Source: Prorocentrum cordatum
Taxonomy: Eukaryota
Reading direction: 5' to 3'
Length of the DNA: 64,000 bases
Assembly (NCBI GenBank): GCA_963575745.1
Contig: CAUYUJ010000181.1
Coordinates: 558,001-622,000 of the forward strand
A program made the position numbers and the translations under genes. Positions 3,760 through 60,202 of this stretch are shown here, in pieces; positions within the stretch are counted from its first letter, which is position 1; every line of letters begins with the position of its first letter. The notes beneath the pieces are model-generated. The model was not told where the DNA came from. It searched no databases and worked only from the letters and a program-made list of their open reading frames with translations.

Positions 3760-4810
3760 GTCCATGCGCCACGTCGGTGTGCCACGCGCACGCGCGACGC
3801 CTACGCACAAGTCCCGTGCGCCGCATCCGCGCCACAACGCTGCGCCCTTCCCATGGTTCATGGCCACTTATGGAATTGCGCCCAAGGCCCCAGTAGAGAC
3901 GCTTACATGCGTCCGCGCCGCGCATCATGCCGCACCCTCGCACGGACCGTGGCCCCATAGGGGGCTCCATCGGAGCCCCCTGTGGCGACGTGGACATGCG
4001 TCCGCGCCACCGATTACGGCGCGCCCCATCACGCGGTTCGCGGCCCCACATGGTGCTCCACTTAAGAGCACCCGTGGCGACGGTCGCACGCTCCTGGGCC
4101 ACCCATCGCGGCGCGCCCTCGCGCGGTTCGTGGCCCCAGAAGGATATCAACGAAAAGCTGCCCAACCATTGCGACGCTCTCCATCACGCGGCCCGTCGCC
4201 TCAGAAAGAGTTCCACCCAAGGCCCCAGTGGCGAAGTTCGCACGCGCGCGCGCAACCCATTGCGGCGCACCCCTCGCACGGTCCGTGGCTGCATCGGGGC
4301 TTTCACTTGAGGCGGCGTCGTACAAGCGTCCGTGCCGCCCATTGCGGTACGCCCCATCACGCGGCCCGTGGCCACATGAGGAGCTCCACATAAAGTCCAA
4401 ATGGCGACCTTTGCCCGCGCCATTCGCGGGCCCATATGGAGCTCCAAGCGACGTGTACTGCGTTTGGCCGCCGATGACGGCACGTGCACGTGCGGTTGCG
4501 CCGCCCATGGCGCTTGCGCCGCCCATGGCCCGCCCACCCACCCAGAGACCCCCGCCCAGCTCCACCCCCGCCACCACCAACCCACCACGACCACCGCCAC
4601 CCCCACGCACGCCCCCCCCCCCCCCACACACACCACCACCGCCACCACCAACCGTCAACCACCACCACACAAACACGACACACACACACACACGACCGGC
4701 ACCACAGACACACACACACACCACGCACCACACACATCACGGCGCATCTATCGCACGGTTCGTGGCCCCATAGGGAGCCCCACCGAACGCCCCAGTGACA
4801 CGCGCATTTG
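3760..4810 (+). repeat. ~86-bp satellite (family A variant) interrupted by (ACC)n/(CA)n microsatellite
   Basis: Repeated CACGGTTCGTGGCCCCATAGGGRGCTCC...GTGGCGACG units; microsatellite at ~4570-4735; one more unit follows it. Confidence 0.85.
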
Positions 4811-5510
4811 CGTGTCCACAATCGCGGTCCTCGCCATTGCACACGATTGAGCTCATGCCCAAGATACAGTCGGAGTCCATTAGTAGGTCGGGCCTGCCAA
4901 ATCAAGGGTACTCTCGTGTCCTGTGCATCGCGCTTCGTGTCCTCTGCATTCCCCGGGCAAGGGTGCCCTTGTGTCCTGTGCTTTCCGCGGGTGTCGGCGG
5001 CTTGGCCCGCGGCGTTCTGGGCGCGTCGCGCCTCGGGGAGGTCGCGGCCCTGGTCAAGGGTACCCTTGTGTCCTCTCAGATTTGGGGGTTCGGTTCGCTT
5101 CGATGTAAGATTGCGGTTTCAGCGCCGCGCCGCCGGCGCCGCGGCGAAGGGTATACTCTGCGATGTCCTCTGAGTGCGGCCGCACCGCCAGTGAACCAAC
5201 GACGCGTTCACTCGAGGTCGCCCCCGCGCAGCAGGGTACTCCTGTGTCCTGTACTTGCCCAGCCCTGCAAGTTCATTCATCGTCGCGTTCGGGCAGGTCG
5301 CGGGGCGCGCAAAGGATACCCTGCCGTCCTGTGCATTGGCTTCTCTTCGGCGGGCTCCTGGGAACAGCAGTGGAGGCGCGCTTTTGGCGGAGTCACGCGG
5401 GCGCTCAGCCTAAGTCTCATAGAGCGCTCTGTATTGTTCCGAATAGAGAAGACGCCGTGTTGGCTTGCAAGCTAGAGCGCGCGCGCGCGGACGCGCGCTG
5501 GCGCGCGCGC

Positions 5511-8500
5511 GAGGAGTTCTGCATGGTCCACAACAGAAAAGCTACCATGTAATTTCAAAAACTGAATTTGAAATTTCTGTGGCCCTTTAAGGAGGCCGAC
5601 GGACGCACCGACTTTCCATTGTGGACAATACAGAAGTCCCCACGCGCGCGCGCGTGAGGAGTTCTGTATTGTCCACAATACAAAGGCCGCCATGTAAGTC
5701 CAAAAAGCTGAATTTGAAATTTCTGTGGCCCTTTAAGGAGGCCGACGGAAATGTCGACTTTTCTATTGTGGACAATACAGAAGTCCCCACGCGCGCGCGT
5801 GCGCGCGTGAGGAGTTCTGTATTGTCCACAATAGAAAAGCCGCCATGTAATTCCAAAAACTGAATTTGATTTTTTTGTGGCCCTTTAAGGCGGCCGACGG
5901 AAATGTCGAATTTTCTATTGTGGACAATACAGAAGTCCCCACGCGCGCGGGCGCGCGTGAGGAGTTCTGTCTTCTGCACAATAGAGAAGCCGCCCTGTAA
6001 TTCCAAAAACTGAATTTGGAATTTCCGTGGCCTTTTAGGAGGCCGACGGAAATGCCGACTTTTCTATTGTGAACAATACAGAAGTCCCGACGCGCGCGCG
6101 TCCGCGCGCGCGCGCGTGAGGAGTTCTGTATTGTCCACAATAGAAAAGCCGCCATGTAATTCCAAAAACTGAATTTGAAATTTCTGTGGCCCTTTAAGCA
6201 GGCCGACGGAAATGTCGACTTTTCTATTGTGAACAGTACCGAAGTCCCCACGCGCGCGCGCGCGGACGCGCGCGCGTCCGCGCGCGCGCGCGTGAGGAGT
6301 TCTGTATTGTCCACAATAGGGAAGCCGCCATGTAATTCCAAAAGCTGATTTTGAAATTTCTGTGGCCAGTTAAGGAGGCCGACGGAAATGTCGATTGTTC
6401 TGTTGTGAACAATACAGAAGTCCGCACGCGCGCGCGCGCGTGAGGAGTTCTGTGTTGTCCACAACAGAAAGCCGCCATGTAATTCCAACAACTGAATTTG
6501 AAATTTCTGTGGCCCGTTAAGGAGGCCGACGGAAATGTCGACTTTTCTATTGTGGACAATACAGAAGTCCCCACGCGCGCGCGTGCGCGGACGCGCGCCA
6601 GTCCGCGCGCGCGCGCGCGAAGAGTTGTGTATTGTCCACAATAGAGAAGCCGCCATGTAATTCCAAAAACTGAATTTGAAATTTCTGTGGCCCTGAAGGT
6701 CGCCGACGGAAATGTCGACTTGACTATTGTGGACACTACAGAAGTCCCCGCGCGCGCGGGCGCGCGCGGACGCGCGCGCGTCGCGCGCGCGCGCGTGAGG
6801 AGTTCTGTATTGTCCACAATAGAAAAGCCACTTTGTAACTCCAAAAACTGAATTTGAAATTTCTGTGGCCCTTTAAGGAGGCCGACGGAAAAGCTCACTT
6901 TTCTATTGTGGACAATACAGAAATGCCCACACGCGCGCGTGAGGAGTGCTGTATTGTGCACAATAGAAAAACTACCACTTAATTCCAGAAGCTGAATTTG
7001 AAATTTCTGTGGCCCTCTAAGGAGGCCGACGGAAATGTCGACTCTTCTATTGTGAACAATACAGACGTCCCCACGCGCGCGCGCGCGTCAGCGCGCGCGT
7101 CAGCGCGCGCGCGTGAGGAGTTCTGTATTGTCCATAATAGAAAAGTTGCCACGTTATTCCAAAAACTGAATTTGAAATTTCTGTGGCCCTTTAAAGAGGC
7201 CGACGGAAATGTCTACTTTTCTGTTGTGGACAATACAAAAGTCCCCACGCGCGCGCGCGCGCGTCCGCGCGCGCGTCCGCGCGCGAGGAGTTCTGTATTG
7301 TCCACAATCAAAAAGCCGCCATGTAATTCCAAAAACTGAATTTAAAATGTCTGTGGCCATTTAAAGAGGTCAACGGAAATGTCGACTTTTGTGTTGTGAA
7401 CCATACAGAAGTCCCCGCGCGCGCGCGTCCGCGCGCGCGCGCGTGAGGAGTTCTGTATTGTCCACAATAGAAAAGCCGCCATGTAATTCCAACAACTGAA
7501 TGTGAAATTTCTGTGGCCCGTTAAGGAGGCCGGCGGAAATGTCGACTTTTCTATTGTGAATAATACAGAAGACCCCACGCGCGCCCGCGCGTTCGCGTCC
7601 GCGCGCGCGTCCGCGCGCGCGCGCGTGAGGAGTTCTGTATTGTCCACAATAGAAAAGCCGCAATGTCATTCCAACAACTGAATTTGAAATTTCTGTTGCC
7701 CTTTAAGGAGGCCGACGAAATCTCGACTTTTCGATTGTGAACCATGCAGAAGTCCCCGCGCGCGCGCGTGAGGAGTTCTGTATTGTCCACAATAGAGAAG
7801 CCGCCATGTAATTCCAAAAACTGAATTTGAAATTTCTGTGGCCCTTTAAGGGGGCCGACGAAAATATAGACTTTTCCATTGTGGACAATACAGAAGGCCC
7901 CACGCGCGCGCGCGTGAGGAGTTCTGTATTTTCCACAATAGAAAAGCCGCCATGTAATCCAAGAGCTGAGTTTGAAATTTCTGTGGCCCTTGAAGGAGGC
8001 CGACGGAAATGTCGACTTTTCTAGTGTGGACACTACAGAAGTCCCCACGCGCGCGCGCGCGCGTGAGGAGCTCTGTATTCTCCACAATAGAAAAGCTTAT
8101 GTAATTCCACAAACTGAATTTGAAATTTCTGTGGCCCGTTAAGGAGGCCGACGGAAATGTCTACTTTTTTTTATTGTGGACAATATAGAAGTCCCCACGC
8201 GCGCGCGCGCGAGAAGTTCTGTATTGTCCACAATAGAAAAGCCGCCATGTAATTCCAAAAACTGAATTTGAAATTTTTGTGGCCCTTTGAGGAGGCCGAC
8301 GGAAATGTCGACTTGTCTATTGTGGACAATACAGAAGTCCCCCGCGCGCGGGCGCGCGCGGACGCGCGCGCGTCCGCGCGCGCGCGCGTGAGGAGTTCTG
8401 TACTGTCCACAATAGAAAAGTCACTTTGTAATTCCAAAAACTGGATTTGAAATTTCTGTGGCCCTTTATTTAAGGAGGCCGATGGAAATGCCGACTTGTC

Positions 8501-9500
8501 TATTGTGGACAATACAGAAGTCCCCACGCGCGCGCGCGCGGACGCGCGCGCCGCGCGTCCGCGCGCGCGCGTGAGGAGTTCTGTTTTGTGCACAATAGAG
8601 AAGCCGCAATTTAATTCCAAAGACCGAATTTGAAATTTCTGTTGCCCCTTAAGGAGGCAGACGAAGACGTCCACTTCTCTATTGTGAACAATACAGAAGT
8701 CCCCACGCGCGCGCGCGTCAGCGCGCGCGCGCGCGTGAGGAGTTCTGTATTGTCCACAATGGAAAAGCCGCCAGGTAATTCCAAAAACTGAGTTTGAAAT
8801 TGCTGTGGGCCCTTTAAGGAGGCCGACGGAAATGCCGACTTTTTTATTGTGGACAATACAGAAGTCCCCGCGCGCGCGCGCGCGTCTGCGCGCGCGCGCG
8901 TGAGGAGGTCTGTATTGTCCCAAATACAAAGAACCTTCATGTAATTCCAAAAACTGAAATTGAAATTGAAGGAGGCCGACGGAAATGTCGACTTTTTCTA
9001 TTGTGAACCATACATAAGTCCCCGCGCGCGCGGACGCGCGCGCGTCCGTTCGCGCGCGCGCGCGTGAGGAGTTCTGTATTGTCCACAATAGAAAAGCCGC
9101 CATGTAATTCCAAAAACTGAATTTGAAATTTCTGTGGGCCTTTCAAGAGGCCGACGGAAATGTCTACTTTTCTATCGTGAATAATACAGAAGTCCCCACG
9201 CGCGCGCGCGTGAGTTCTGTATTGTCCACAATAGAAAAGCTGCCATGTAATTCCAAAAACTGAATTTGAAATTTCTGTGGCCCTTTAAGGAGGCCGACGG
9301 AAGTGTCGACTTGTCTATTGTGAACAATACAAAGTCCCCACGCGCGCGCGCGCGTGCGCGCGCGTGAGGAGTTCTGTATTGTCCACAATAGAGAAGCCGC
9401 CATGTAATTCCAAAAACTGAATTTGAAATTTCTGTGGGCCTTTAAAGAGGCCGACGGAAATGTCGACTTTTCTATCGTGAACAATACAGAAGTCCCCACG
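5511..9500. repeat. array of ~25 hairpin units (~132-bp constant unit + variable (CG)n linker)
   Basis: Unit = GAGGAG-TTCTGTATTGTCCACAATAGAAAAG-70 bp-CTTTTCTATTGTGGACAATACAGAA-GTCCCC, with 25-bp inverted arms. Linkers are ~12-50 bp of alternating CG. Confidence 0.95.
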
Positions 9501-9945
9501 CGCGTCCTCTCGTTTGCGCCGTCCGCGTCCGCGCCCATGTTCTCTGGTCTTCTGCCATGGCGACAGGTCGCTCTCCCGCGGAAGGGTGGTCTGCGCGTCC
9601 TCTCGTTTGCGCCGTCCGCGTCCGCGCCCATGTTCTCTGGTCTCCTGCCATGGAGACAGGTCGCTCTCCCGCGGAAGGGTGGTCTGCGCGTCCCCTCGTT
9701 TGCGCCGTCCGCGTCCGCGCCCATGTTCTCTGGTCTTCTGCCATGGCGACAGGTCGCTCTCCCGCGGGAGGGTGGTCTGCGCGTCCTCTCGTTTGCGCCG
9801 TCCGCGTCCGCGCCCATGTTCTCTGGTCTTCTGCCATGGCGACAGGTCGCTCTCCCGCGAGAGGGTGGTCTGCGCGTCCTCTCGTTTGCGCCGTCCGCGT
9901 CCGCGCCCATGTTCTCTGGTCTTCTGCCATGGCGACAGGTCGCGT
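9500..9945 (+). repeat. 93-bp tandem repeat, about 4.8 units
   Basis: GCGCGTCCTCTCGTTTGCGCCGTCC... recurs every 93 bp, which explains the 31-aa periodic ORFs here. Confidence 0.95.
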
Positions 9946-11269
9946 GACCGCCCCCAGAGGGAGGTGGGCGCGCGCGGCGCATCATGATTTACTTTTCTGC
10001 GCGGTGGGCGGCGCGGCCTGTCGGACACCCCTGGTGTCCTGTCCGACGTTGGCCCCCCGTCGCGGGGGCGCGGGTCGGCCGCGGGCGACCGCGGTCGCGG
10101 CCCCGAGAGGGTACCCTTGTGTCCTGTGGTTCTGGGAGGTCATGTTGCCGCCGGAAGAGTATTGTGTCCTGTCGCGTGTCCTGGGCAATGGACTCTGCCT
10201 GTGCGTCAAACTCCAGCCCCGCGCCTTTCCTCTCCCCCTCCCCCTCTCCCGCCCCCCCCCCCTCCGCCCCTCCCCCAGCCCGTCCCCCGCCCGTCTAATA
10301 TGGGCGGGCAGGAGGAGAATTGAGCACGGCAGAGCAAGGCAGAGTCGGGGGCAAAGGATGGGGAGTCATAGGTCACGAGATAGCGCGCCGTGCCAACGTG
10401 GGATGATCTGTGGGCGCATGCAGTATGAGGTGCAGGTATCTGAGTTCCACTCGCCCACGTTTTGCGATCCCACGGGTGCCCTCGAGCACGCGCCTCTGCC
10501 ATCCTGGCCGTGCGCGTGCGATCTCCAGTGTTGGGCCACCCTCTGGGAGGGCAGCCCTTGGCCTCTTCGCGCACGCCCTGGCCCATGTTGGGGCATCGCG
10601 CGCGCGCCCGCAGAACGGGGCGCCCCGTGTGCCCAAGCATTCCGCGGCCGCGCCGCCTGGTACTTGCGGCGGTATCCTACTCGTGGCGGGGGAAAAAGAG
10701 GGGAGAGGCTCTGTCCGTCGGGGCCGCTGGTGGCGTTCAGCGTTAAGCGGCACTCGGCCACCGGCCACCGGCAACGAGGGGCGCCGTGTCCGAATGCGTT
10801 TCTGGCGCATTTGCCCATGTCTTCGAGGGGGGGGGGGCGGGGGGCTTAGGTCGCCCGCGTGCCGACAGGTGGCGTCCACCCGAGAATGCGACAGTGGAGC
10901 GCTCGGTGGCACAGGGCAGCGCATCGCGGCTGCGCGAGCGTTGCGCTGCGGCTGGGGCGCTGGGCCCGCCCGCCAAAGTTTCGAAGGGGGGGCGGCGTTC
11001 CTCAATCGAAGATGCGAGCGAGCAAGGTGCGTCGCGGCGGAGAGAATCGCAGGGGCGTCGTCAGGAGCGTTCTGTCCACCTACGGCGCCCGAGCACCTCG
11101 GGCCGCGCGCCTGGCGCGTGCACCCCGCCAGCGGTTGGCGAGGGGGGAGGGGGGGGGGGGGGCTGGTCGGACGCCCGCGCCGCATGCGCCGCCGCAGCCA
11201 TCAGCGCCGCCAGATGACGACGAAGCGCGCCGCAGCGCATGGCGCGCCTCGACGCCGCGCGACCGCGCG

Positions 11270-12310
11270 CGACGGCGCACGACGGCGTACGACGGTGTAC
11301 GACGGCGTACGACGGAACGAATTCAAGCAAAATTTTGCTTAAATTTGCTTGAATTTTGCTTGAATTTTGCTTGAATTTTACTTGGGGAAGCATTTTTCTG
11401 AAAAAATGCTTTCCGATAGTAGAATTTTGAAAATTTGCTTGAATTTTACTTTGCAAGCAAAATTTTGCTTGAATTTTGCTTGGCAAGCAAAATGTTGCTT
11501 GAATTTTGCTTGGCAAGCAAAATTTTGCTTGAATTTTGCTTGGCAAGCAAAATTTTGCTTGAATTTTGCTTGGCGCGGCCCACTAAGCAAACTTCGAAGC
11601 AAATTTTGCTTGGTCGGCTGCGCCAAGCATCGATGGCGGTCGTGGTCTTATGTGGCCACTACCGCCATCGATGCGAACAGATAGCTAGTGGAAGGGGCGT
11701 AGCAACAACAAATGCTTGGATATTACTTGGGCAGCGCAAAGCAAATTTTAAGCAAATTTCTAGCAAAATTTTGCTACGCGAAGCAAAATTTAAGCAAATT
11801 TCTAGCAATTTTTGCTACGCGAAGCAAAATTTAAGCAAATTTCTAGCAAAATTCTGTTTCGCGCCTTCCACATCTTACCCGCTCACATCGACTGCGGTCG
11901 TGGTCCTATATGACCACTACCGCCATCACTGCGCACGGAAAACGTAGTGGAAGGGGCGTCGCAACACTTTGCGTTTTACTTTGGGGAGGGGGGAAGTGTG
12001 GCAGCGCCAAGCAAATTTTAAGCAAAATTCTAGCAAAATTTTGCTACGCGAAGCAAAATTTAAGCAAATTTCTAGCAAAATGTTGCTTCGCCCCTTCCAC
12101 ATCTTACTCGTTCACAGCGATGGCGGTCGCATCTTAGTTACGCGGGGGGACGGGGGTGGCAGCGCCAAGCAACATTTAAACAAATGTCTAGCAACATGTT
12201 GCTACGCGAAGCAAAATTTAAGCAAATGTCTAGCACAATTTTGCTACGCGAAGCAAAATTTAAGCAAATGTCTAGCAAAATTCTGCTACGCCAAGCAAAC
12301 AAGCAAGTTG
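11270..12310. repeat. AT-rich palindromic motif cluster (CAAGCAAAATTTTGCTTG and relatives), preceded by (CGACGGCGTA)n
   Basis: Perfect 18-bp palindromes at 11454-11471, 11514-11531 and 11544-11561 on a 30-bp period. A hairpin module at ~11630 recurs at ~11890. Confidence 0.9.
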
Positions 12311-12349
12311 TCTAGTAAGCTGTTGCTACGAATTGCGATTCGAACGCGC

Positions 12350-12647
12350 CCAATATTTCGCAAAGCACCCCCTCCTTTTGTTTTGTTCGCAAAGGTCAAC
12401 CCCCTTCCCCCGTCCTCCCGATTTCTGCAAAAGTCCTCACCCCACCTCCCCATGCCGATTTGTGCAAGGTCCCCCCTGCCCCCGCCCCCGTCCTTCTGAT
12501 TTTTGCAAAAGCCCCCCGCCCCCCTTTCCCCCCGTCCTTCCGATTTTTGCAAAGCCCCTCCTCCCCCGTCCTTCCGATTTCTGCAAAGCCCCCCCCCTTA
12601 TTCCGATTTGTGACTCCCGATCTTTGCAAAGTCCCCCCCCCCCCGTG
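12350..12647 (+). repeat. CCGATTTTTGCAAAGCCCCCC ~40-bp repeat, left part
   Basis: The motif is repeated about 7 times and resumes at 17635, after the inserted 5-kb element. Confidence 0.8.
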
Positions 12648-13291
12648 CCGTCGGAGTCCATTAGTAGGTCGGGCCTGCCAAATCAAGGGTACTCTCGTGT
12701 CCTGTGCATCGCGCTTCGTGTCCTCTGCATTCCCCGGGCAAGGGAACCCTTGTGTCCTGTGCTTTCCGCGGGTGTCGGCGGCTTGGCCCGCGGCGTTCTG
12801 GGCGCGTCGCGCCTCGGGGAGGTCGCGGCCCTGGTCACGGGTGCCCTTGTGTCCTGGCAGATCTGGGGGTTCGGTTCGCTTCGATGCAAGATTGTGGTTT
12901 TAGCGCCGCGCCGCCGGCGCCGCGGCGAAGGGCATTCTCTGCGATGTCCTCTGATTGCGGCCGCGCCGCCAGTGAACCAACGACGCGTTCTCTCGAGGTC
13001 GCCCCTGCGCAGCAGGGTACTCCTGTGTCCGGTACTTGCCCAGCCCTGCAAGTTCGTTCATCGTCGCGTTCGGGCAGGTCGCGGGGCGCGCAAAGGGCAC
13101 CCTGCCGTCCTGCGCATTGGCTTCACTTCGGCGGGCTCCTGGGACCAGCAGTGGAGGCGCGCTTTTGGCGGAGTCACGCGGGCGCTCAGCCTGAGCCTCA
13201 TAGAGCGCTCTGTATTGTTCCGAATAGAAAAGACGCCGTGTTGGCTTGCAAACTAGAGCGCGCGCGAGCGGACGCGCGCTGGCGCGCGCGC

Positions 13292-16200
13292 GAGGAGTTC
13301 TGTATGGTCCACAACAGAAAAGCTGCCATGTAATTCCAAAAACTGAATTTGAAATTTCTGTGGCCCATTAAGAAGGCCGACGGACGCGCCGACTTTTCCA
13401 TTGTGGACAATACAGAAGTCCCCACGCGCGCGGGCGCGTGCGGACGCGCGCGCGTCCGCGCGCGCGCGCGTGAGGAGTTCTGTATTGTCCACAATAGAAA
13501 AGCCGCCATGTAATTCCAAAAACTGAGTTTGAAATTTCTGTGGCCCTTTAAGGAGGCCGACGGAAATGTCGACTTGTCTATTGTGGACAATACAGAGGTC
13601 CCCACGCGCGCGCGCGCGTGAGGAGTTCTGTATTGTCAACAATAGAAAAGCCGCCATGTAATTCCAAAAACTGAATTTGAAATTTCTGTGGCCCTTCTAA
13701 TGAGGCCGACGGAAATGTCGACTGTTCCATTGTGGACAATACAGCAATCCCCACGCGCGCGCGCGTGAGGAGTTCTGTATTGTCGGCAATAGAAAAGCCG
13801 CCATGTAATTCCAAAAACTGAATTTGAAATTTCTGTGGCCCTTTAAGGATGCCGACGGAAATGCCGACTTTTCTATTGTGAACAATACATGCGTCCCCAC
13901 GCGCGCGCGCGCGGACGCGCGCGCGTCCGCGCGCGCGCGCATGAGGAGTTCTGTATTGTCCGCAATAGAAAAGCCGCCATGTCATTTCCAAAACTGAATT
14001 TGAAATTTCTTTGGGCTTTTAAGGAGGCCGACGGGAATGTCGACTTCTCAATTGTGAACAATACCGAAGTCCCCAAGCGCAAGCGCGCGCGAGGAGTTCT
14101 GTATTGTCCCATGGAAAAGCCGCCATGCAATTCCAAACACTGAATTTGAAACTTGTGTGGCCCTGTAAGGAGGCCGACGGACATGTCGACTTTTCTTTTG
14201 TGAGCAATATAGAAAGTCCGCACGCGCGCGCGCGCGTGAGAAGCTCTGTATTGTCCACAATAGAAAAGCAGCCATGTAATTCCAAAAACTGAATTTGAAA
14301 TTTCTGTTGCCCGTTAAGGAGGCCGACGGAAATGTCGACTTCTTTATTGTGGGCACTACAGAAGTCCCCACGCGCGCGCGTGCGCGGACGCGCGCGCGGA
14401 CGCGCGCGCGCGTGAGGAGTTCTGTATTGTCCAACAGAAAAGCCGCCATGCAATTCCAAACACTGAATGTGAAATTTTTGTGGCCCTCTAAGGAGGCCGA
14501 CGGAAATGTCGACTTTTCTATTGTGGACAATGCAGAAGTCCCCGCGCGCGCGGGCGCGGGCGGACGCGCGCGCGTCCGCGCGCGCGAGCGTGAGGAGTTC
14601 TTCTGTATTGTCCACAATAGAAAAGCAAACTTGTAATTCCAAAAACTGTATTTGAAATTTCCGTGGCCCTTTAAGGAGGCCAACGGAAATGTCGACTTTT
14701 CTATTGTGGACAGTACAGAAGTCCCCACGCGCGCGCGCGCGTGAGGAGTTCTGTATTGTGCACAATAGAAAAGCCGCCACTTAATTCCAAAAACTGAATG
14801 TGAAATTTCTGTGGCCATTTCAAGATGCCGACGAAAATTTCGACTTCTCTATTCTGAACAATACAGAAGTCCCCACGCGCGCGCGCGCGTCAGCGCGCGC
14901 GTCAGCGCGCGCGCGCGCGTGAGGAGTTCTGTATTGTCCACAATAGAAAAGCCGCCATGTAATTCCAAAAATTGAATTTGAGAATTTTCTGTGGGCCTTT
15001 AAGGAGGCCGACGGAAATGTCGACTTTTCTATTGTGAATAATACAGAAGTCAGCGGGTGCGCGCGAGGAGCTCTGTATTGTCCACAGTAGGAAAGCCGCC
15101 ATGTATTTCCAAAAACTGAATTTGAACGTTCTGTGGCCCTTTAAGGAGGTCGTCGGAAATGTCGACTTTTCTTTTGTGAACCATACAGAAGTCCCCGCGA
15201 ACGCGCGCGTGAGGACTTCTGTATTGCCCACAATAGAGAAGCCGCCATGTAATTCCAAAAACTGAATTTGAAATGTAGATTGTTCGATTGTAAACAATAC
15301 AGAACTCCCCATGCGCGCGCGCGCGTGAGGAGTTCTGTATTGTCCACAATAGAAAAGCAGCCATGTAATTCCAAAAACTGAATTTGAAATTTCTGTGGCC
15401 CTTTAGGGCGGCCGACGGAAATGTCGATTTTTCTATTGCGGACAATACAGAAGTCCCCACGCGCGCGCGCGGACGCGCGCGCGTCCATGGCGCACGCGCG
15501 CGCGTGGAGTTCTGTATTGCCCACAATAAAAAAGCAAGCTTTTGTAGTCCCAAAAACTGAATTTGAAATTTCTGTGGCCCGTTAAGGAGGCCGACGGAAA
15601 CAAGGACTTTTCTATTCTGGACAATACAGAAGTCCCCACGCGCGCGCGCGCGCGGACGCGCGCGCGTCCCGCGCGCGCGCGTGTGAGGAGTTCTGTATTG
15701 CTAACAATAGAAAAGCCGCCATGTAATTCGAAAAACTGAATTTGAAGTTTCTGTTGCCCTTTGAGAAGGCCGACGGAAATGTCGACTTTTCTATTGTGGA
15801 CAATACAGAAGTCCCCGCGCGCGCGGGCGCGTGAGGAGTTCTGTATTGCCCACAACAGAGAAACCATTTTGTAATTGTAAAAACTGAATTTGAAATTTCT
15901 GTGGGCTTGTAAGGAGGCCGACGGAAATGTCGACATTTCTATTGTGGACAATACAGAAGTCCCCACGCGCGCGCGCGCGGACGCGCGCGCGTCCGCGCGC
16001 GCGCGTGAGGAATTCTGTATTGTGCACAATAGAGAAGCCGCCATTTTATTCCAAAAACTGAATTTGAAATTTCTGTGGCGCCTTAAGGAGGCAGACGACA
16101 ATCTCGACTTTTCTATTGTCAACCATACAGAATTCCCCCGTCAGCGCGCGCGCGTCAGCGCGCGCGCGCGTGAGGAGTTCTGTATTGTCCACAATAGAAA

Positions 16201-16930
16201 AGCCGCCATGTAATTCCAAAAACTGAATTTGAAATTTCTGTGGCCCTTTAGGGCGGCCGACGGAAATGTCGATTTTTCTATTGTGGACAATACAGAAAGT
16301 CTGCACGCGCCTGCGCGCGCGGACGCGCGCGCGTCCGCGCGCGCGTGCGAGCGCGCGCGCGCGTGAGGAGTTCTGTATTGTCCACAATAAAGAAGCCGCC
16401 ATGTAACTGCAAAAAGGAAATTTGAAATTTCTGTGGGCCTTTAAGGAGGCCGACGGAAATGCCGATTTTTCTACTGCGAACATTACAGAAGTCCCCGCAC
16501 GCGCGCGCGCGTGAGGAGTTCTGTATTGTCCACAATAGAGAAGCCGCCATGTAATTCCAGAAACTGAATTTGAAATTTCTGTGGGCCATTAAGGAGGCCG
16601 ACGGAAATGTCAACTTTTCTATTGTGAACAATACAGAAGTCCCCACGCGCGCGCGTGAGGAGTTCGGTATTGTCCACAATAGAAAAGCCGCCGTGTAATT
16701 CGAAAAACTGAGATTGAAATTTCTGTTGCCCTTTAAAGAGGCCGACGGACATGTCGACTTTGCTATTGCGAACAATACAGAAGTCCCCGCGCGCGCGTGA
16801 GGAGTTCTGTATTGCCCACAATAAAGAAGCCGCCATGTAATTGCAAAAACTGAATTTGAAATTTCTGTGGGCTTGTAAGGAGGCCGACGGAAATGTCGAC
16901 TTTTCTATTGTGAACAATACAGAAGTCCCC
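13292..16930. repeat. array of ~23 hairpin units with (CG)n linkers
   Basis: Same unit as 5511-9500; the unit at ~15211 has an internal deletion. Confidence 0.95.
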
Positions 16931-16931
16931 A

Positions 16932-17378
16932 CGCGCGTCCTCTCGTTTGTTCCGTCCGCGTCCGCGCCAATGTTCTCTGGTCTTCTGCCATGGCGACAGG
17001 TCGCTCTCCCGCGGAATGGTGGTCTGCGCGTCCTCTCGTTTGCGCCGTCCGCGTCCGCGCCCATGTTCTCTGGTCTCCTGCCATGGAGGCAGGTCGCTCT
17101 CCCGCGGGAGGGTGGTCTGCGCGTCCTCTCGTTTGCGCCGTCCGCGTCCGCGCCCATGTTCTCTGGTCTTCTGCCATGGCGAGAGGTCGCTCTCCCGCGG
17201 GAGGGTGGTCTGCGCGTCCTCTCGTTTGCGCCGTCCGCGTCCGCGCCCATGTTCTCTGGTCTTCTGCCATTGCGACAGGTCGCTCTCCCGCGGGAGGGTG
17301 GTCTGCGCGTCCTCTCGTTTGCGCCGTCCGCGTCCGCGCCCATGTTCTCTGGTCTTCTGCCATGGAGACAGGTCGCGT
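16932..17378 (+). repeat. 93-bp tandem repeat, about 4.8 units
   Basis: Same as 9500-9945. Confidence 0.95.
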
Positions 17379-17634
17379 GACCGCCCCCAGAGGGAGGTGG
17401 GCGCGCGCGGCGCATCGTGATTTACTTTTCTGCGCGGTGGGCGGCGCGGCCTGTCGGACACCCTTGGTGTCCTGTCCGACGTTGGCCCCCCGTCGCGGGG
17501 GCGCGGGTCGGCCGCGGGTGACCGCGGTCGCGGCCCCGAGAGGGTACCCTTGTGTCCTGTGGTTCTGGGAGGTCATGTTGCCGTCGGAAGAGTCCTGCGT
17601 CCTGTCGCGTGTCCTGTGCAATGGGCTCTGCCTG

Positions 17635-17960
17635 TAGTCCGATTTGCGCAAAGTCCCCGCTCGCCCCCGTCCTGTAGATTTTTGCGAAATCCCCGCCGTC
17701 TCCAATATGTGCAAAATCCCCCCCATCGCCCCCCCCTCGCCGTCCTTCTTATTTTTGCACAAAGCCCCCCCCCGCCCGCCCCCCTTTCCCCCCCCCCTTT
17801 CCCGTCCTTCCAGTTTTTGCAGAGCCCCCCCCTTTCCCACCCCCGTCCTTCAGATTTTGCCCCCCCCCCCCGGCTTTTTCGATTTAACGACGCCCCCCTC
17901 CCCCCCCCGCCCCTTCGCGATCGTTATCCCCCCCTCCCTCCCCCCCCCCCTCCGCCGATT
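17635..17960 (+). repeat. CCGATTTTTGCAAAGCCCCCC repeat, right part
   Basis: Continuation of the 12350-12647 motif. Confidence 0.75.
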
Positions 17961-18889: not shown

Positions 18890-20235
18890 CCGTGCGTCAA
18901 TGTCGGCGCGCCTCTCCACGCGCTTCGTGACCGCGTAGGGAATTTCATGCGAGTTCCCAGTGGCGACGTCTGCATGCGTCCGCGCCGCCCATTACGGCGC
19001 ACCCATCGCGCGCTTCATGGCCCCGTACGGATCCCCACGTAAAGCCCCCGCGGCGACGTTGACATACGTCGGCGCCACCCATGGCGACGCGCCAATCACA
19101 CGTTCCGCAGCCCGATGGGGGGCTCCGCCAAATCCACCCAGTGGCGACGTCCACATGCGTCCGCGCCGCCCGTAACGGCGCACCCCTCAAACGTTTCGTG
19201 CCGTCATGGGGATCTCCACCCAAGACCGCAGTGGCGATGTTACATGCGCCAACGCTCCATAGGGTGCTCCACCGAAGGCCTCAGCGGCGGCGTTTACATA
19301 CGCCCGCGCAGCCCATGACAGCGCACCCGCGCGCCGTTCGTGGCCACGCAGCGAGCTCCCTGCACGGCACCACCGGCGATGTTTGCATGCGCTTGCGCCG
19401 CCCATGACGGCGCGCCTGTCGCAGTGTTCATGGCCCCAAAGCGAGCGCCGCCGAAGGCCCCAATGGCGACGCGCACATGCGCCCGCGCCATTCATTACGG
19501 CGCACACTTCGCACGGTCCGCGGCCCCATAGGGAGGTCCACGTAAGGCCCCAGTGCCGACGTATGCACGCGCCCGCGCCCCCAAGAAGGGCACACCGCTC
19601 ACGCGGTTCGTGGCCGCGTAGGGAGCTCCGCCTATAGCTCCACTGGCGACCTCTGCGTGCACCCGCGCCACGCATCACGGCGCACCGCTAACGCGTCCCG
19701 TGGCCCCACGGGGAGCCTCGCTTGAAGCCCCGACGGCGACGTTTACGCGCGCCCGCGTCGCCCGTTACGACGCGCCCCTCAGACGGCTCGTGGCCCATGA
19801 GGAGCCCCATCTAAGGCCCGAGTGACGACGTTAGCATGCCCCCCCCCCTCCCCGCCCCCTCCCCCCACACCCTCCCATTCACTCCGCCCGCCCACCCACC
19901 GCGACCACCAGCATCAACACACACACACACACACGCACGCACACACACGCGCACACACACACACACACATACCACCACCACCACCACCACCATCGCCACC
20001 ACCACCACCACCACCACCCACCACCACCAGCACCACACTTATACACACCACACACACCAACACACACACACACAGACACGCGCACGCACGCACACACACA
20101 CACCAACACACACAGACCACACACACACACACACACGCATTGTGGCGCACCCCGCGCGCGCTTCGTAGCCGCATGTGGAGCTGAAAGGGACGCGCCAGTG
20201 ACACTTGCCGATGCGTTGCCCCGTAGGAGGTTTCA
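18890..20235 (+). repeat. ~86-bp satellite (family A variant, about 11 units) + (CA)n/(ACC)n + final unit
   Basis: Same unit and layout as 3760-4810. Confidence 0.85.
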
Positions 20236-23868: not shown

Positions 23869-24837
23869 CAAAAAAAAGAAAACAGAAAAGAAGAGCACAC
23901 ACAGAGAAAACAAACAAATCGAAGGGGGGACACGTTGGCGGCTATAGAGGACACGCAGGAGGATGAGGTGCAGGATCAGGAGGGCGAGGAAGCAAGGGGA
24001 CTCACGAAGATCTTCCCAGCGCTGCGGAATCCTACTGGCTCATTGTTGCTACCTGCAGGCGCGAGTGCATCTGACGCCCTGGACCCCTCGTTCTACCTCC
24101 TGCCTGACGCACCCACACTTTCCCCTCGCCGTCCATTTTCACGCCGATTCGCTTCGTCAGTATGCTTCGCTTTGTCTCCTCGTTGGTTGTTCCCCCCTCC
24201 CCTCCCTCCCCTTCTTTGCGACGCGCCGTGCTCTGCGGGAGCCGCGGGGAACTCCTTGGACAAGCGCGAGCCGAAGCAGGTCGACGAGGCGGCCGATGGT
24301 CAAAGCGCCGGCGGGTACGACGCTCCAGCTAGGTTCGCAAAGACGTGACCGGTTGCGTCGCCTTGTAGGGGGCAAGTACAGTAGGGGTCCGACCACAAGA
24401 AGCCTTCCTCAAGAAACCCAACCCTGAGACCCCAGGACGTCCATTGATTTTTGGCGTGGGAGCGTCACGCTTTCCATGGCAAAACCATCGAAACCGAAGA
24501 AACCCAGGGCACCCTGGAGGCAAGCGGGGTGTTTCTTGGCATGGCCCTCCACCGTACCACGTCGCCGTGTGCGCGGGCCTGCCAAAGGCGGCGGCTACAG
24601 CAAGGCAAGGAGCGGAGTGACTGCCGACGGTCTGGACAAGAAGGCCTTCGATGGCGGCGACGGGGCGACCGGGCACGACCTCGACTGGAGCCGGACAGCA
24701 CAGGGCAGCTCTCCGACGGCACCGTCTCAAAGCAGGTCCACTCCCCGAAGGTCCAGCGGACGGCAGCGACGGCAGGGCAGCCCTGCCCGGGAGGATTTTC
24801 CGAGCGCGGGCCTGGCCCCAGGAAGGAAGGAGCAGGC

Positions 24838-25292
24838 GGAGGAGGAGGAGGGGGAGGAGGAGGAGGAGGAGGAGGAGGAGGAGGAGGAGGAGGAGGAGGA
24901 GGAGGAGGAGGAGGAGGAGGACGACGGGGAGGAGAAAAAGAAGGAGGAGGAGGAGGAGGAGGAGGAGGAGGACGGGGAGGAGAAAAAGAAGGAGGAGGAG
25001 GAGGAGGAGGAGGAGGAGGAGGAGGAGGAGGAGGAGGAGGATGGGGAAGAGGAGGCAGGGGAGGAGGAGGAGGCGGAGGAGGAGGGGGAGGAGGAGGAGG
25101 AGGAGGAGGAAGAGGATGAGGAGATGGAGGAGGAGGACGAGGAGGAGGACGAGGAGGACGAGGAGGAGGACGAGGAGGAGGACGAGGAGGACGAGGAGGA
25201 GGACGAGGAGGAGGAGGAGGAGGAGGAGGAGGAGAAGGAGGAGGGCGAGGAGGAGGAGGACGACGGGGAGGAGAAAAAGAAGGAGGAGGAGG
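24838..25292. repeat. (GAG)n compound microsatellite
   Basis: Direct reading. Confidence 0.95.
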
Positions 25293-25869: not shown

Positions 25870-26440
25870 CGCGGCGGCACGGGGTGGGCCGAAACAGGCG
25901 GGGAACCGCAAGCGAGGACGGCCACTGGGGTCTTCGGTCGAGCTTCCTATATATATGGGGCCACGAACCGTGTGAGGGGTGTCGCAAAGCATGTGAGAGG
26001 AGTGCCGAAATGGTCGGGGAGCCAGATGCAAGAACAGCCACTGGGATCTTCGGTGGAGCTGCCTATCGGGCCACGAAACGTGAGGGGTGTTCCGAAGTGG
26101 GCAGGAAACCGCATGTGAGAACGGCCACGGGGGCCTTCGGTGGAAATTCCTCTGTTGCCACGAGACGTGTGAGGGGTCTGTGAAGCCACGAATCGAGCGA
26201 TGATCGTGCCGAAATGGGGGGAACCGCATGCGAGGACGGCAACCAAGGTCGTCGGTGAAGCTCCCTATGAAACCACCGAACGTGTGATGGGTGTTCCGAA
26301 ATGTGCGGGAAACCGCATGCGAAGACGGCCACTGGGGACGTCGGGGGAGCTCCCTGTGGGGCCACGAACCGTGTGAGGGGTATGCCGAAACTTTCTGGGT
26401 ACCGCATGCAAGGGGGTGCGCCGAAATGGGCGTGGCAGCC
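25870..26440 (-). repeat. ~86-bp satellite (family A), reverse orientation
   Basis: GGGGCCACGAAMCGTGTGAGGGG...CCGCATG units, the reverse complement of the 1-560 unit. Confidence 0.85.
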
Positions 26441-30227: not shown

Positions 30228-31100
30228 GGAGGAGGAGGAGGAGGAGGAGGAGGAGGAGGAGGAGGAGGAGGAGGAGGAGGAGGAGGAGGGGGAGGAGGGG
30301 GAGGAGGAGGAGGAGGAGGAGGAGGAGGAGGAGGAGGAGGAGGGGAGGAGGAGGAGGAGAGGAGGAGGAGGAGGAGGAGGAGGAGGAGGAGGGTCTCAGA
30401 GTCGGGCTCCCCGCCCCCGCCCTGCCGCCGCCGCCCCCCCCCCTCCCGGCCGCCGCCCCCGCCTCGACAGCCCCGGGGGGCGCTTGCGCGGAGGCCCGCG
30501 GCCCAGCATGTCCCGGCTGGACGTGGCGGTGCCGGAGGCCACGACGGCCTCGCGCTCTCCCGGCGGAGGGGGTCAGAGGGCGAGGAGCGGAGAAGCGCTG
30601 CAGGAGGAGGAGGAGGAGGAGGAGGAGGAGGAGGAGGAGGAGGAAGAGGAGGAGGAGGAGGACGGAGGGAGGAGGGAGGAGTGAGGAGAGAGGAGAGGAG
30701 GAGGAGGAGGAAGGGGAGGAGGAGGAGGAGAGGAGGGGAGGAGGAGGAGAGGAGGAGGAGGAGGAAGGAGGAGGAGGAGGAGGAGGAGGAGGAGAGGGGA
30801 AGGAGGAGGAGGAGGAGGAGAAGGAGGAGGAGGAGGAAGAGCGAGGATGAGGAGGGAGGAGGGTGGAGGAGGGGAAGGAGGAGGAGGAGGAGGAGGAGGA
30901 GGAGGAAGAGCGAGGATGAGGAGGGGGAGGGGGAGGAAGGGAGGAGGGAGGAGAGAGGAGGGAGGAGGAGGAGGATGAGGAAGATGACGAAGGAGGAGGA
31001 GGGGAGGAGGGCGGGGGGGGGAGGGGGAGGGGGAGGAGGAGGAGGAGGAGGAGGAGGAGGAGGAGGAGGAGGAGGAGGAGGAGGAGGAGGAGGAGGAGGA
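30228..31100. repeat. (GAG)n microsatellite blocks
   Basis: Direct reading; a short unique GC-rich island lies at ~30390-30600. Confidence 0.9.
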
Positions 31101-31740
31101 GGACCAGTGTAAGTCCAAGGGCCATCAATGATGTTGGAATGCGCCCTTCCTCCAAGCTCCCCCTTCATAGGCCCCTACAAGGGGTCACTTCCCCCGAGGT
31201 ACCTGCCTCGGGAAGACAGCCGTTTGAAGACCTTGAAGCATGGCAAAACATTGTTCTCGGGATTCCCCCCCCGAATCAACTTGAGTATTGCGTCTTGGCG
31301 ATCTTGAATCGTGCCAGAACGCCACTCCTGGGACTTCACCACTGCGAACCAATGTCATTGTTACACCCTCATAATCCTGAATCCTTCCAATGGGAATCCG
31401 TGAAACTCATGCAAATGTAAAGAACGAGTGTGCGCGGCGATAAAACGAGAACATCATTGCGGAAAGGAACCGCCCTCAATTCGTGAAACTCTTGTAAATC
31501 TTTAAAGCGAATGTGCGCGGCGCTAAAACGAGATCAACATGTTGAAAACCAGTCGCCCTCAATCAATGCTCGCGGCGCTAGGCCGAGAGCCACATCTTGA
31601 AAACGGCCCGCCCTCCATCTGCTGTCATGTTTCAATACCAAGAACACGAGCGGCGAGGAAGTCTCAGGCGAAACGCCGGGCCCACCCTAGGAACTAGCCT
31701 CGCGGTGCGACCGGGAAAACTTACTTATAAGGAAAAGGAA
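31100..31740 (-). mobile_element. (CCT)n-embedded interspersed element, copy 1
   Basis: Reverse-complement homologue of 38890-39675 and 51740-52628, sharing the ACTGGTCCTC end and GCTCTCG..TAGCGCCGCG subrepeats. Confidence 0.75.
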
Positions 31741-38889: not shown

Positions 38890-39675
38890 TCTCCTTATAA
38901 ATAACTCCTCCCTGCCGCACCCCGAGGCCAGTTTTTAGGGCGGGCCAGACGTTTCGCCAGAGACTTCCTCACCACTTATGACTCTGAAGCTTAAACAGTG
39001 ACAGCAGCTTCACAGATGGAGGGCGGGTGGTTTTCAAAATGTGGCTTTCGCCTTAGCGCCGCGCACATTCCTTCAAACATTCGCAAGAGTTTCACGGATT
39101 GAGGGCGGGTGGTTTCCAAAATGTGGCTCTCGCCTTAGCGCCGCGCACATTCTTTGTAAACATTTGCAAGAGCTTCACGGAATGAGGACGGGTGGTTTCC
39201 GAAATGTGGCTCTCGCCTTCGCGCCGCGCACATTACTTGTAAACATTTGCAAGCGCTTCACAGATTGAGGGCGGTTCCTTTTCAAAATGTGGCTCTCGCC
39301 TGAGCGCCGCGCACATTCGCTTTCGAACTTTGCAAGCGTTTCGCGGATTCCCATGATCAGCGAACCAGGCATGGTGTTTTGGAAGGATTCCAGATTATGC
39401 GGGTGCAGCAGTCAATGTTGATTCGCGGAGTTGGAGTCCCAAAAATGGCGCTCAGGCACGATTCCGGATCGTCAAGACGCAGCAGTCAGGTTGACACGTG
39501 GCGTTGACATCCCGAGAACAATGTTTCGGCATTCTTCAAGATCTTCAAACGTCTGTCCTCCAACGGGGCAGTTCCGTCAATGGAAATGAACCGTTGTGGG
39601 GGCCTTTGAAGAGGGAGCTTGGAGGGAGGATTAGTTCCAACATCGTTGATGACTCTTGGGTTTATACTGGTCCTC
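38890..39675 (+). mobile_element. (CCT)n-embedded interspersed element, copy 2
   Basis: ATAACTCCTCCCTGCCGCACCCCGAGG start, four ~83-bp AAATGTGGCTCTCGCCTTAGCGCCGCGCACATT subrepeats, TTTATACTGGTCCTC end. Confidence 0.8.
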
Positions 39676-39860: not shown

Positions 39861-40175
39861 GCAAAAGAAAAACAGCCTGGCACCCACCGGCCAAGTGTGG
39901 CGCGCTGCGGGGCGCCGCCGCAGCCGCCGCCGCCGCCGCCGCAGCCGCCGCCACCGCCGCCGCCGCCGCCTCATCCACCTCCGCCTCCTCCTCCTCATTC
40001 CTCCTCCTCCTCCTCCTCCGACCTCCTACCGCCTTCCTCCTGCATGCCTCCTTCCTCCTCCTCCTCCCCCTCTTTTCCTCACCTCCTCCTCCCTCCTCCT
40101 CCTCCTCCTCCTCCTCCTACTTCACCTCCTCCTCCTCCAACTCCTCCTCCTCCCTTTCCTCGTCCTCCTCCCCCT

Positions 40176-40526
40176 CATCATGATCAGAACCATCCTCCTC
40201 CTCATCATCATCGTCATCATCATCATCATCATCATCAGCATCATCATCATCCTCATCCTCATCCTCATCACCATAATCATCATCATCAGCAGCAGCATCA
40301 TCATCATCATCATCAGCAGCATCACCATTATCATCATAGTCATCAGCATCATCCTCATCATCACCATCATCATCATTGTCAGCATCATCATGGATTTCGT
40401 CACCATTATCATTATTAACAGCATCATCATTATAATCAGCATCATCAGCATCAACATCAGCATCACCATCGTCATCTTCATCATCAGCAGCATCATCATC
40501 GCATCTACCATCATCATCAGCAGCAA

Positions 40527-40560
<34 letters not shown>

Positions 40561-41105
40561 GTCATCATCGTCGTTACCATCATCGTCAACAGCAGCATCA
40601 TCAGTATCATCATCATCTGTTTCCTCATCATCACATCCAGAATCATCATCAGTATCGTCACCATCAGCCTCACCATCATCATCAGCATCATCATTATCAG
40701 CATCATCATCATAATCAGCATCATCGTCATCATTCTCCTGATTTATCATCACCATCATCAGCAACAGCAAAAGCAGCATCATCAAAATCATAATCGTCCT
40801 CCTCGTCATCATCATCATAGTCAGCATCACCATCACCGTCATCATCATCACCATCAGCATCATCAGCATGATCTTCATGACCACAATCACCATCATCGTC
40901 ACCATGGTCATCGTCATCATCATCGTCAACAGCAGCATCATCATTATCAGCATCAGCATCATCATCATCATCACCATCACCATTGCCAGCATACTCATCA
41001 TAATCGTCATGATCGTCATCATCACCGCCACCACAGCCACCATCACCATCACCATCAACATCACCATTGTGATCATCATCATCAGCAGCATCATCATCAT
41101 TCTCA
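40176..41105. repeat. degenerate (CAT)n microsatellite, ~930 bp
   Basis: Direct reading. Confidence 0.95.
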
Positions 41106-47599: not shown

Positions 47600-48262
47600 G
47601 GGGAGGAGGAGGAGGAGGAGGAGGAGGAGGAGGAGGAGGAGGAGGAGGAGGAGGAGGAGGAGGAGGAGGAGGGGCGGAGGAAGGAAAACGCATGGGGCAT
47701 GAGCGGGAGCCCGGGACGAGGAGGCCCGAGGGGGGAGGAGGTAGGGAGGGAATGCAGAGAAGGATGCGAGAGGAGGAAGAAGGAGGAGGAAGGAGGAGGA
47801 GGAGGAGGAAGCAGGAGGAGGAGGACGGGGGAGGAGGAGAGGGGGCCGAAGGGGAAGGCAGAGGAGCGCGGAGAGAGGGAGGAGGGAGGAGGAGGAGGAG
47901 GAGGAGGAGGAGGAGGAGGAGGAGGAGGAGGAGGAGGAGGAGGAGGAGGAGGAGGAGGAGGAGGAGGGAGGAGGAGGAGGAGGGAGGAGGAGGAGGAGAG
48001 GAGGAGGAGGAGGAGGGGGAGGGGAGGGGGAGGAGGAGGCGGAGGGGGAGGAGGAGAGGAGGAGGAGGAGGAGGAGGAGGAGGAGGAGGAGGAGGAGGAG
48101 GAGACACTCGAACTGACCGAATGAATAGGAGGAAAAGGAGGAAAAGGAGGAGGAGGAGGAGGAGGAGGAGACACTCGAACTGACCGAATGCATAGGAGGA
48201 AAAGGAGGAAAAGGAGGAGGAGGAGGAGGAGGAGGAGGAGGAGGAGGAGGGAGGAGGAGGGG
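47600..48262. repeat. (GAG)n microsatellite with duplicated GAGACACTCGAACTGACCGAATG
   Basis: Direct reading; the duplicate lies at ~48101 and ~48168. Confidence 0.9.
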
Positions 48263-51739: not shown

Positions 51740-52628
51740 TTCCTTGATACATAACTCCTCCCTGTCGCACCCCGAGGCTGGTCGAAAGGGCGTGCCAGGC
51801 GTTTCGCTTGAGGTTTCCTCACCACCTATGGTCCTGAAGCTTGAAATGAACAGCAATTTCAAAGATGGAGGGCGGTCCGATTTCAAAATGTGGCTCTCGC
51901 CTTAGCGCTGCGAACGTTCATCTTCAAATTTGCAAGAGGTGTGCAGACGGAGTGCGCAACGCTTTCAAAAAGTGGCTCTCGCCTTGGCGCAGCGCGCATT
52001 CGTTTTACGCATATGTAAGAACTTTATGAAAGGCGGTCCGCTTTCAAAAGGTGGTATTAGCCTGAACAACGCAAACACTCGTCTTAAACAGTTGCAAGAG
52101 CTTCATGACTGGATAGCGGCCCGCTTTCAAAAAGGTGGCTTTCGCTCTGGCGCCGCGTACACTCATTGGAAACATTGGCAAGATCTTCACGGATGCCCGC
52201 TTTCAACATGTGGCTCTCGCCTTAGCGCTGCGTACATTCGTCTTCAATGGTTGTAAGAGCTTCACGGATTGAGGGCGGCTCCTTTTCAAGATGTGGCTCT
52301 CGCCTGTAGCGCCGCGCACATTCGTCTTAAGAGTTCGCAGCAGTGTCGGAAAGTCAGGATGCAACAGTCACGCTGATTCAAGGTGTTGAAGTCACAGGAG
52401 TGGTGTTCTGACACAATTCAGGATCGTTGAGATGCAACAGTAACGGTGACTCGCGGCGTTGAAGTCGCAGGACTAGCGTTCTGGTACAATTCTGGATTAT
52501 CAAGCAGTTGTCTTCCAACAAGGCGCTTCTCACAGTAACATGAACCCTTGTAAAGGGTCATTGAAGAAACGACTAGGGAGAAGGTTTATTGCAATGTCGC
52601 TGGAGAATATTGGCTTTGCACTGGTCCT
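51740..52628 (+). mobile_element. (CCT)n-embedded interspersed element, copy 3
   Basis: Same start, subrepeats (about 6) and ACTGGTCCTC end as 38890-39675. Confidence 0.8.
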
Positions 52629-53530: not shown

Positions 53531-53572
<42 letters not shown>

Positions 53573-53790
53573 GTGAGGAGGAGGAGGAGGAGGAGGAGGA
53601 GGAGGAGGAGGAGGAGGAGGAGGAGGAGGAGGGAGGAGGGGGATGGAGGAGGACGAAGAGGAGGAGGAGGAGTGGAAGAAACAAGGTAATTATAGTTTGA
53701 TAGAGGAGGAGGAGGAGGAGGAGGAGGAGGAGAAGGAGGACGAGGAGGAGGAAGAGGATGAGGAAGAGGAGGAGTAGGAAGAGGAGAAGA
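52629..53790. repeat. (CCT)n/(GAG)n/(GAT)n microsatellite blocks
   Basis: Direct reading; small unique islands are interspersed. Confidence 0.9.
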
Positions 53791-60159: not shown

Positions 60160-60202
60160 CCCGTGCGGTCCCGCGAGCGCCCGAAGCAGGCGAGACACAA
60201 GG

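Follow-up and report, generated by a model that had tools for sequence, protein, structure and literature searches.

Two copies of a 5-kb transposon-like element carrying an array of palindromic repeats in a 64,000-nt stretch of GC-rich DNA

We analyzed a 64,000-nt stretch of DNA (hereafter the window, to whose positions all coordinates refer) that contains two copies of an element of about 5 kb built around a long array of palindromic repeat units. The window has a G+C content of 59.7%, is full of micro- and minisatellites detected with Tandem Repeats Finder (TRF), and reads as nuclear DNA of a GC-rich aquatic eukaryote. The two copies, at 4867-10201 and 12648-17634, lie in the same orientation and 2.4 kb apart, and their modules follow one another in identical order: a 642-bp head, 25 or 23 palindromic units, 4.8 copies of a 93-bp repeat, and a 258-bp tail (Table 1). 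The head and the tail are the only non-repetitive parts of the element. Using blastn, the heads (4869-5480 and 12650-13261) were aligned at 95.6% identity over 612 bp and the tails (9940-10202 and 17373-17635) at 96.6% over 263 bp, and TRF reported the 93-bp repeat 4.8 times in either copy. With megablast, the collinear edges were found to reach into the arrays, 12650-13444 matching 4869-5660 at 95.2% and 16500-17635 matching 9053-10202 at 94.1%. Module by module, the copies are identical at 613 of 642 positions of the head (95.5%), 431 of 442 positions of the 93-bp block (97.5%), and 249 of 258 positions of the tail (96.5%), with no gap column in any of the three. These results bear out the original prediction, which had described two copies of one fixed layout with nearly identical heads, tails, and 93-bp blocks. 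No third copy was found elsewhere in the window by blastn with the left and right regions.

The ends of both copies are short inverted repeats. The terminal 15-mers match each other in inverted orientation at 13 of 15 positions in copy 1 and at 11 of 15 in copy 2, and homology between the copies begins and ends within 1-2 nt of them. Allowing up to 3 mismatches, we found 8 matches to the terminal 15-mer in the window against 1.6 expected, a number reached in none of 100 shuffles. Four of these 8 matches are exactly the four copy ends, in inverted orientation, as had been predicted. No longer inverted repeat was detected, the local alignment score of the head against the reverse-complemented tail being 25 (shuffle mean 22, maximum 41). 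The head and the tail share a module in direct orientation, with a score of 52 that exceeds every shuffle. The core of this module is a 22-nt subterminal motif, AGGGTACCCTTGTGTCCTGTGC, which with up to 6 substitutions has 12 matches, all on the plus strand and all within the two cassettes, five per head and one per tail. These motifs are candidate protein-binding sites.

The junctions read TA/CAG...CTG/TG in copy 1 and TG/CCG...CTG/TA in copy 2 (slashes mark the element boundaries), with TA on one side of each copy. The inner junctions of the pair (10200-10203 and 12646-12649) are both TG and the outer junctions both TA, and the left terminus of copy 2 has changed from CAG to CCG. No duplication longer than TA was found beyond the ends at the window junctions.

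Table 1 Positions of the modules, ends, and flanking repeats of the two copies.
Feature	Position	Strand	Remarks
TA at 5' end of copy 1	4865-4866		putative half of a target-site duplication
5' terminal inverted repeat, copy 1	4867-4881	+	CAGTCGGAGTCCATT; 0 mismatches; homology to copy 2 from 4869
Head of copy 1	4867-5508	+	642 bp; 22-nt subterminal motif at 4905, 4960, 5057, 5233, 5313
Degenerate half-unit closing the head of copy 1	about 5425-5476		read from the sequence
Array 1	5509-9501	+	25 units of ~138 bp with 31-bp arms; (GC)n linkers of 5-44 bp
93-bp repeat x 4.8, copy 1	9500-9943	+	TRF, 97% matches
Tail of copy 1	9944-10201	+	258 bp; one full subterminal motif, 10108-10129, oriented as in the head
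3' terminal inverted repeat, copy 1	10187-10201	-	CAGGCAGAGTCCATT on the minus strand; followed by TG
C-rich 34-bp repeat array, left part	12401-12647		TRF and flank comparison; broken by copy 2
5' terminal inverted repeat, copy 2	12648-12662	+	CCGTCGGAGTCCATT, one change; preceded by TG
Head of copy 2	12648-13289	+	642 bp; subterminal motifs at 12686, 12741, 12838, 13014, 13094
Array 2	13290-16934	+	23 units; (GC)n linkers of 4-54 bp; unit at 15209-15314 with a 39-bp internal deletion
93-bp repeat x 4.8, copy 2	16933-17376	+	TRF, 95% matches
Tail of copy 2	17377-17634	+	258 bp; subterminal motif 17541-17562
3' terminal inverted repeat, copy 2	17620-17634	-	CAGGCAGAGCCCATT on the minus strand; differs from the 5' repeat of copy 1 at 3 positions
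TA at 3' end of copy 2	17635-17636		read from the sequence
C-rich 34-bp repeat array, right part	17638-17871		TRF and flank comparison; broken by copy 2

We compared the sequences outside the ends. The flanks of copy 1 were found to be unrelated to those of copy 2. The sequences to the left and right of copy 2 are members of a single 34-bp repeat family (12407-12597 against 17664-17869, 69.7% identity over 221 columns, E 8e-20), and copy 2 therefore interrupts that array, in agreement with the earlier proposal that it splits a simple repeat. For copy 1, a search for its target site through related flank repeats found similarity that ends about 55-70 nt short of the junction.

To these junctions we added contigs from four public sequencing runs (X1-X4), aligned to 9502-13291, the part beside the arrays. 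In X1, X2, and X4, there are single contigs whose match to the window begins at 12660 in the head or ends at 10183 in the tail. Beyond these points they run through variant termini (CAG(T/C)CGG... at left ends, ...GCCTG at right ends) and into flanks unlike those of the window, and they represent a related subfamily at other loci. The left variant ends read ...GGTA/CAGTCGGCCCAG in an X1 contig and TA/CAGCCGGCCCGG in an X4 contig; the right variant ends read ...CCCGCCTG/TACTCC... in an X1 contig and ...CCCGCCTG/TAGTAG... in an X2 contig. TA thus adjoins all four variant ends (one contig each) and 6 of 8 ends overall (2 of 4 in the window and 4 of 4 variant), against a TA share of 2.4% of the window's dinucleotides. 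The binomial probability of 5e-9 for 6 of 8 ends presumes independence, and some of the contigs may represent one locus in different strains. All contig joints had a shorter side below 30 letters at 90% likeness, which makes them unreliable, and none was used; a loose end at 12650 in X2, a blend of 2 contigs (agreement 0.7), was not counted as a flank. The predicted combination of CAG...CTG ends with TA targets is thus seen at most of the ends, but each window copy has TA on one side only.

The contigs also gave an indication of abundance. In X2, X3, and X4, contigs covered the spacer between the copies at a depth like that of single-copy sequence and differed little from it. The depth of head contigs compared with neighboring single-copy contigs was 10.5-11.5 against 2.9-5.4 in X1, 103-136 against 10.9-46.1 in X2, and 12.6 against 5.75-8.38 in X4. 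Words of the head occur in metagenome runs that are mostly marine and also from estuary, aquatic, and freshwater samples; they were partially present in 20 of the 24 runs listed, from 15 studies, and at least half of the words were present in 5 of these 24. RNA runs contained at most 0.10 of the head's words. Exact-pattern scans with a 36-mer or 26-mer of the unit and a 26-mer of the head gave no matches in collections of metagenome, genome, and viral contigs.

We then scanned 125 open reading frames (ORFs) of the window against Pfam, comprising all 122 of at least 110 aa with residue entropy >3.75 and three long ORFs of low entropy. None matched a family at the curated cut-off, neither the 33 inside the two copies nor the other 92, and so no transposase was seen anywhere in the window. 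This is consistent with the description of a non-coding mobile cassette in the original prediction, which is also supported by the related ends joined to different flanks. Elsewhere in the window, a 462-codon ORF on the minus strand (58947-60332) shows a coding-like G+C by codon position of 0.73/0.58/0.77. It has no Pfam match and no homologue among proteins of 254-809 residues, and its residues 250-462 gave no usable Atlas match.

To characterize the arrays, we searched the window with the unit. The 49 plus-strand matches correspond to 25 units in copy 1 and 23 in copy 2, the unit with the deletion matching twice, which agrees with the predicted counts; no unit was found outside the two arrays in the window. 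The length assigned to a unit, about 132-138 bp, varies with the placement of the cuts in its G/C ends, and the consensus of ~138 bp has 31-nt arms and a loop of ~70 nt. The 46 linkers had been described as variable; all of them are (GC)n-based tracts of 4-54 bp, with GGAC, GTCC, or GTCA breaking up those that are long. The linkers are microsatellite, not spacers. The resemblance to CRISPR that had been pointed out is therefore superficial, extending only to a leader-like head followed by repeats with something between them; with (GC)n between ~138-bp units at 46 of 46 linkers, no cas genes among the 125 ORFs scanned against Pfam, and DNA of eukaryotic appearance, the analogy fails. A derivation of the units from the element's own ends was also rejected, the four ends matching the unit consensus no better than shuffles (p 0.08-0.98).

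The arrays have changed much more than the modules around them. On average, units are 86.4% identical to one another within copy 1 and 83.3% within copy 2, and units of different copies are 84.9% identical. Clearly orthologous units were found only at the edges (the first, 94.9%; the last, 94.9%; the third from last, 94.2%), and the best interior blocks reach only 82-89% between copies. The arrays differ in length (3993 against 3645 bp), and their global alignment contains 596 gap columns. A few complex linkers keep their order between the copies: one of 38 bp, identical in both, comes after unit 5 of copy 1 and unit 4 of copy 2; one with a double GTCA comes after unit 10 in either copy; and one with a single GTCA comes after unit 20 of copy 1 and unit 18 of copy 2. 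In tandem arrays, conserved edges around a scrambled interior are the product of unequal exchange, slippage, and conversion. As the pattern is typical of such exchange, the predicted remodeling of the array between copies is upheld, and "rapidly remodelled" is a fair description of it.

Taken together, we think it probable that each copy is a class II (cut-and-paste) transposon of the Tc1/mariner/pogo type that targets TA, is non-autonomous and mobilized in trans, and bears an internal satellite as passive cargo. Tc1/pogo elements typically have CAG(T) termini and insert at TA. The CAG...CTG termini, the adjoining TA, and the lack of a transposase ORF fit a non-autonomous Tc1/mariner-like transposon, and, as expected for this type, the ends are inverted repeats whose variants start with CAG(T/C)CGG or finish with GCCTG. 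From these sequence features we infer to which superfamily the element belongs, that an enzyme acts on it in trans, and how its arrays turn over. A transposase encoded elsewhere in the genome would recognize the CAG(T/G)C(G/A)G... termini, and may also recognize the 22-nt subterminal motifs (five in the head, one in the tail). It would excise the entire 5-kb unit and reinsert it at TA; the 2.4-kb spacing and the shared orientation of the copies would fit local hopping. The interior would be carried along passively, as a satellite whose palindromic monomers of ~138 bp are linked by (GC)n microsatellite. Once the element is inserted, the number and order of units could change by replication slippage, unequal exchange, and gene conversion, processes that the hairpin-forming arms and (GC)n tracts may favor.

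Several observations weigh against this explanation. No single copy was seen with TA on both sides, and hence no perfect target-site duplication was seen in any copy. Two changes fall within 4 nt at the left end of copy 2, more than the overall divergence of 4-5% would predict. The subterminal motifs in the head and the tail share one orientation and are not inverted. For a Tc1/mariner substrate, an element of 5-5.3 kb is long. No transposase was found among the window ORFs compared with Pfam. The four variant ends belong to a related subfamily, and some of them may come from one locus in different strains. In addition, the depth of the head, about 2-4 times that of single-copy neighbors, hints at a low copy number, with the reservation that depth is not copy number.

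The best-surviving alternative, which we nevertheless regard as unlikely, is a non-autonomous element derived from a Helentron or Helitron (HINE, DINE-1, or pearl-like) and spread by rolling-circle transposition, a group in which central tandem repeats are typical. Helitrons and Helentrons have a 5'-TC start, a 3'-CTRR end with a hairpin near it, and insert at A/T or T/T without duplication. Here, the termini are CAG...CTG rather than 5'-TC...CTRR-3', and no hairpin lies within ~20 nt of the 3' end, a GC-rich palindrome of the tail being located ~100 nt from it. The directional, non-inverted subterminal motifs are in keeping with such an element. T/T insertion is compatible with the junctions if the element starts at A, since T is then the last base of the left flank at 3 of 4 ends and the first base of the right flank at 4 of 4. 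However, the right flank is TA, not merely T, at 3 of 4 ends, which is unexpected under T/T insertion, and the flanks seen here fit such insertion only if the recurrent A after the right-hand T is due to chance. The architecture itself has support in the literature as described there: conserved ends with central satellite-like arrays are typical of Helitron and Helentron derivatives (PMC12628747), and DTC84/pearl elements form a "cassette" for internal repeats linked to microsatellite (PMC3879986). The putative AA duplication described for DTC84 (PMC3879986) was not seen here.

We also considered that the element is not mobile and that a local segmental duplication or gene conversion placed a satellite-bearing locus 7.8 kb downstream. 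The window does hold only two copies, close together and in direct orientation; neither has a perfect TA...TA duplication, and the apparent copy number in other runs is low. On the other hand, homology stops exactly at the inverted 15-mers on both sides of both copies, the 34-bp repeat array interrupted by copy 2 resumes on its far side, and contigs of other runs join related ends to different flanks. This makes a non-mobile origin very unlikely.

Finally, the transposon could spread a functional cargo: a source of hairpin or small RNA, or a nucleosome-phased, cruciform- or Z-DNA-prone module acting in chromatin, replication, recombination, or centromere-like roles. If true, a marine protist would harbor a mobile element of structural DNA. 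The hairpin formed by the unit is very stable: when a unit is folded as DNA together with its linkers, the energy is -56.3 kcal/mol, compared with -21.5 +/- 3.1 for shuffles (z -11.25), and none of 200 shuffles was as good. The unit periods are bimodal, clustering at ~142-153 and 174-183 bp, the linkers are alternating (GC)n, and the array has been kept in both copies. We therefore looked for traces of selection on the fold. Because RNAalifold on the 47 units returned no long stem, pairs of the consensus fold were counted directly. Across 47 units and 31 pairs, 90.3% of cells were paired against 90.2% after shuffling (167 of 500 shuffles as high), and double changes were seen at 2 pairs where 4.2 were expected (a number reached in 486 of 500 shuffles). 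Identity to the consensus is equal in stems and loop (92.7% and 92.9%), and per-unit folding energies have decayed to values from -9.6 to -41.2 kcal/mol, the consensus being at -39.9. The absence of compensatory change, together with equal conservation of stems and loop, leaves no sign of selection on the hairpin structure; the pairing of the units is merely inherited from their consensus. Rfam gave no matches in the window, and the units do not have the properties of a structured RNA. The "structural-DNA" role in the original prediction is thus unsupported, and a functional cargo is the least probable of the explanations weighed here.

A composite transposon made of copy 1, the spacer, and copy 2, with the outer TA...TA as its target site, was rejected, as copy 2 alone splits the 34-bp array.

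Other repeats were observed in the window. The spacer between the copies contains AT-rich palindromic minisatellites at 11331-12300, with 11-bp and 30-bp AATTTTGCTTG-type repeats and 41-42-bp repeats in three blocks, and a duplicated module of ~200 bp (11628-11820 and 11886-12091, 80%). A separate dispersed repeat of ~60-170 bp was found upstream of copy 1 (4000-4420), at 19403-19555, at 26330-26376, and at other positions. A unit of ~500 bp occurs in three tandem copies at 56963-58501 (84-87% identity by megablast). An 83-bp repeat is present 4.2 times at 39006-39349, with a weaker related copy at 52083-52322 (76.8%), and a repeat of 83-bp period lies at 31395-31564. Very long trinucleotide arrays (AGG/GGA x 155-265, TCA x 308) were located at 24828-25292, 30602-31103, 40175-41100, 47602-48260, and 52980-53786, and (CA)n and C-rich tracts occur throughout. 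Near the window end, 63833-63993 is a self-complementary stretch of ~165 bp (84.8%).

The element provides a clean and large example, from a poorly sampled marine eukaryote lineage, of the link between DNA transposons and satellites. By comparing its two copies, one can distinguish slow change at the transposon ends from fast turnover in the internal array. The element opens no new question; it is of practical value for annotating the repeats of this organism, and strains might be told apart by array length and insertion sites.

The original prediction had recognized no described family. Transposon cassettes with internal satellite arrays are nonetheless well described in published accounts, in DTC84/pearl (PMC3879986), miDNA4 (PMC12628747, PMC9659126), and Tetris (PMC4079207), so this kind of element is known from clams, frogs, and flies. 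Tetris carries tandem repeats within inverted ends (PMC4079207). Like foldback-type elements as described for Tetris (PMC4079207) and Galileo (PMC3573991, PMC4168063), the element is non-autonomous, with a bulk of tandem repeats able to seed satellites. In foldback-type elements, however, the repeats are described as lying inside long terminal inverted repeats, in opposite orientations at the two ends. Here, there is one central array of single orientation and the terminal inverted repeats are only ~15 bp. With that orientation and with no long inverted ends built of repeats (score 25 against a shuffle maximum of 41), a foldback element was rejected.

DTC84 of the bivalve Donax is described as core repeats and a microsatellite between flanks with short inverted repeats, termed a "cassette", and the palindrome in each repeat was proposed as a hotspot of length change (PMC3879986). 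As in DTC84/pearl, our element has flanking modules with inverted repeats, an attached microsatellite, palindromic repeats, and a repeat number that differs per copy (PMC3879986). DTC84 is described as high-copy, with up to five core repeats and a putative AA duplication (PMC3879986), whereas here there are 23-25 units, TA flanks, and a copy number that looks low.

The closest counterpart in transposon type is miDNA4, a Tc1/mariner miniature inverted-repeat transposable element of Xenopus tropicalis whose internal satellite varies in copy number (Scalvenzi and Pollet, as cited in PMC12628747 and PMC9659126). According to these accounts, miDNA4 is, like our element, non-autonomous and of a TA-targeting superfamily, and its satellite consists of either a single monomer or an array with a changing number of copies. 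The likeness is one of description. The element studied here departs from miDNA4 as described in being far larger, with 23-25 monomers in 5-5.3 kb, and in having (GC)n linkers, monomers that are long palindromes, and a further repeat class (93 bp x 4.8), and it resides in a marine eukaryote; in both, the array changes length inside the element.

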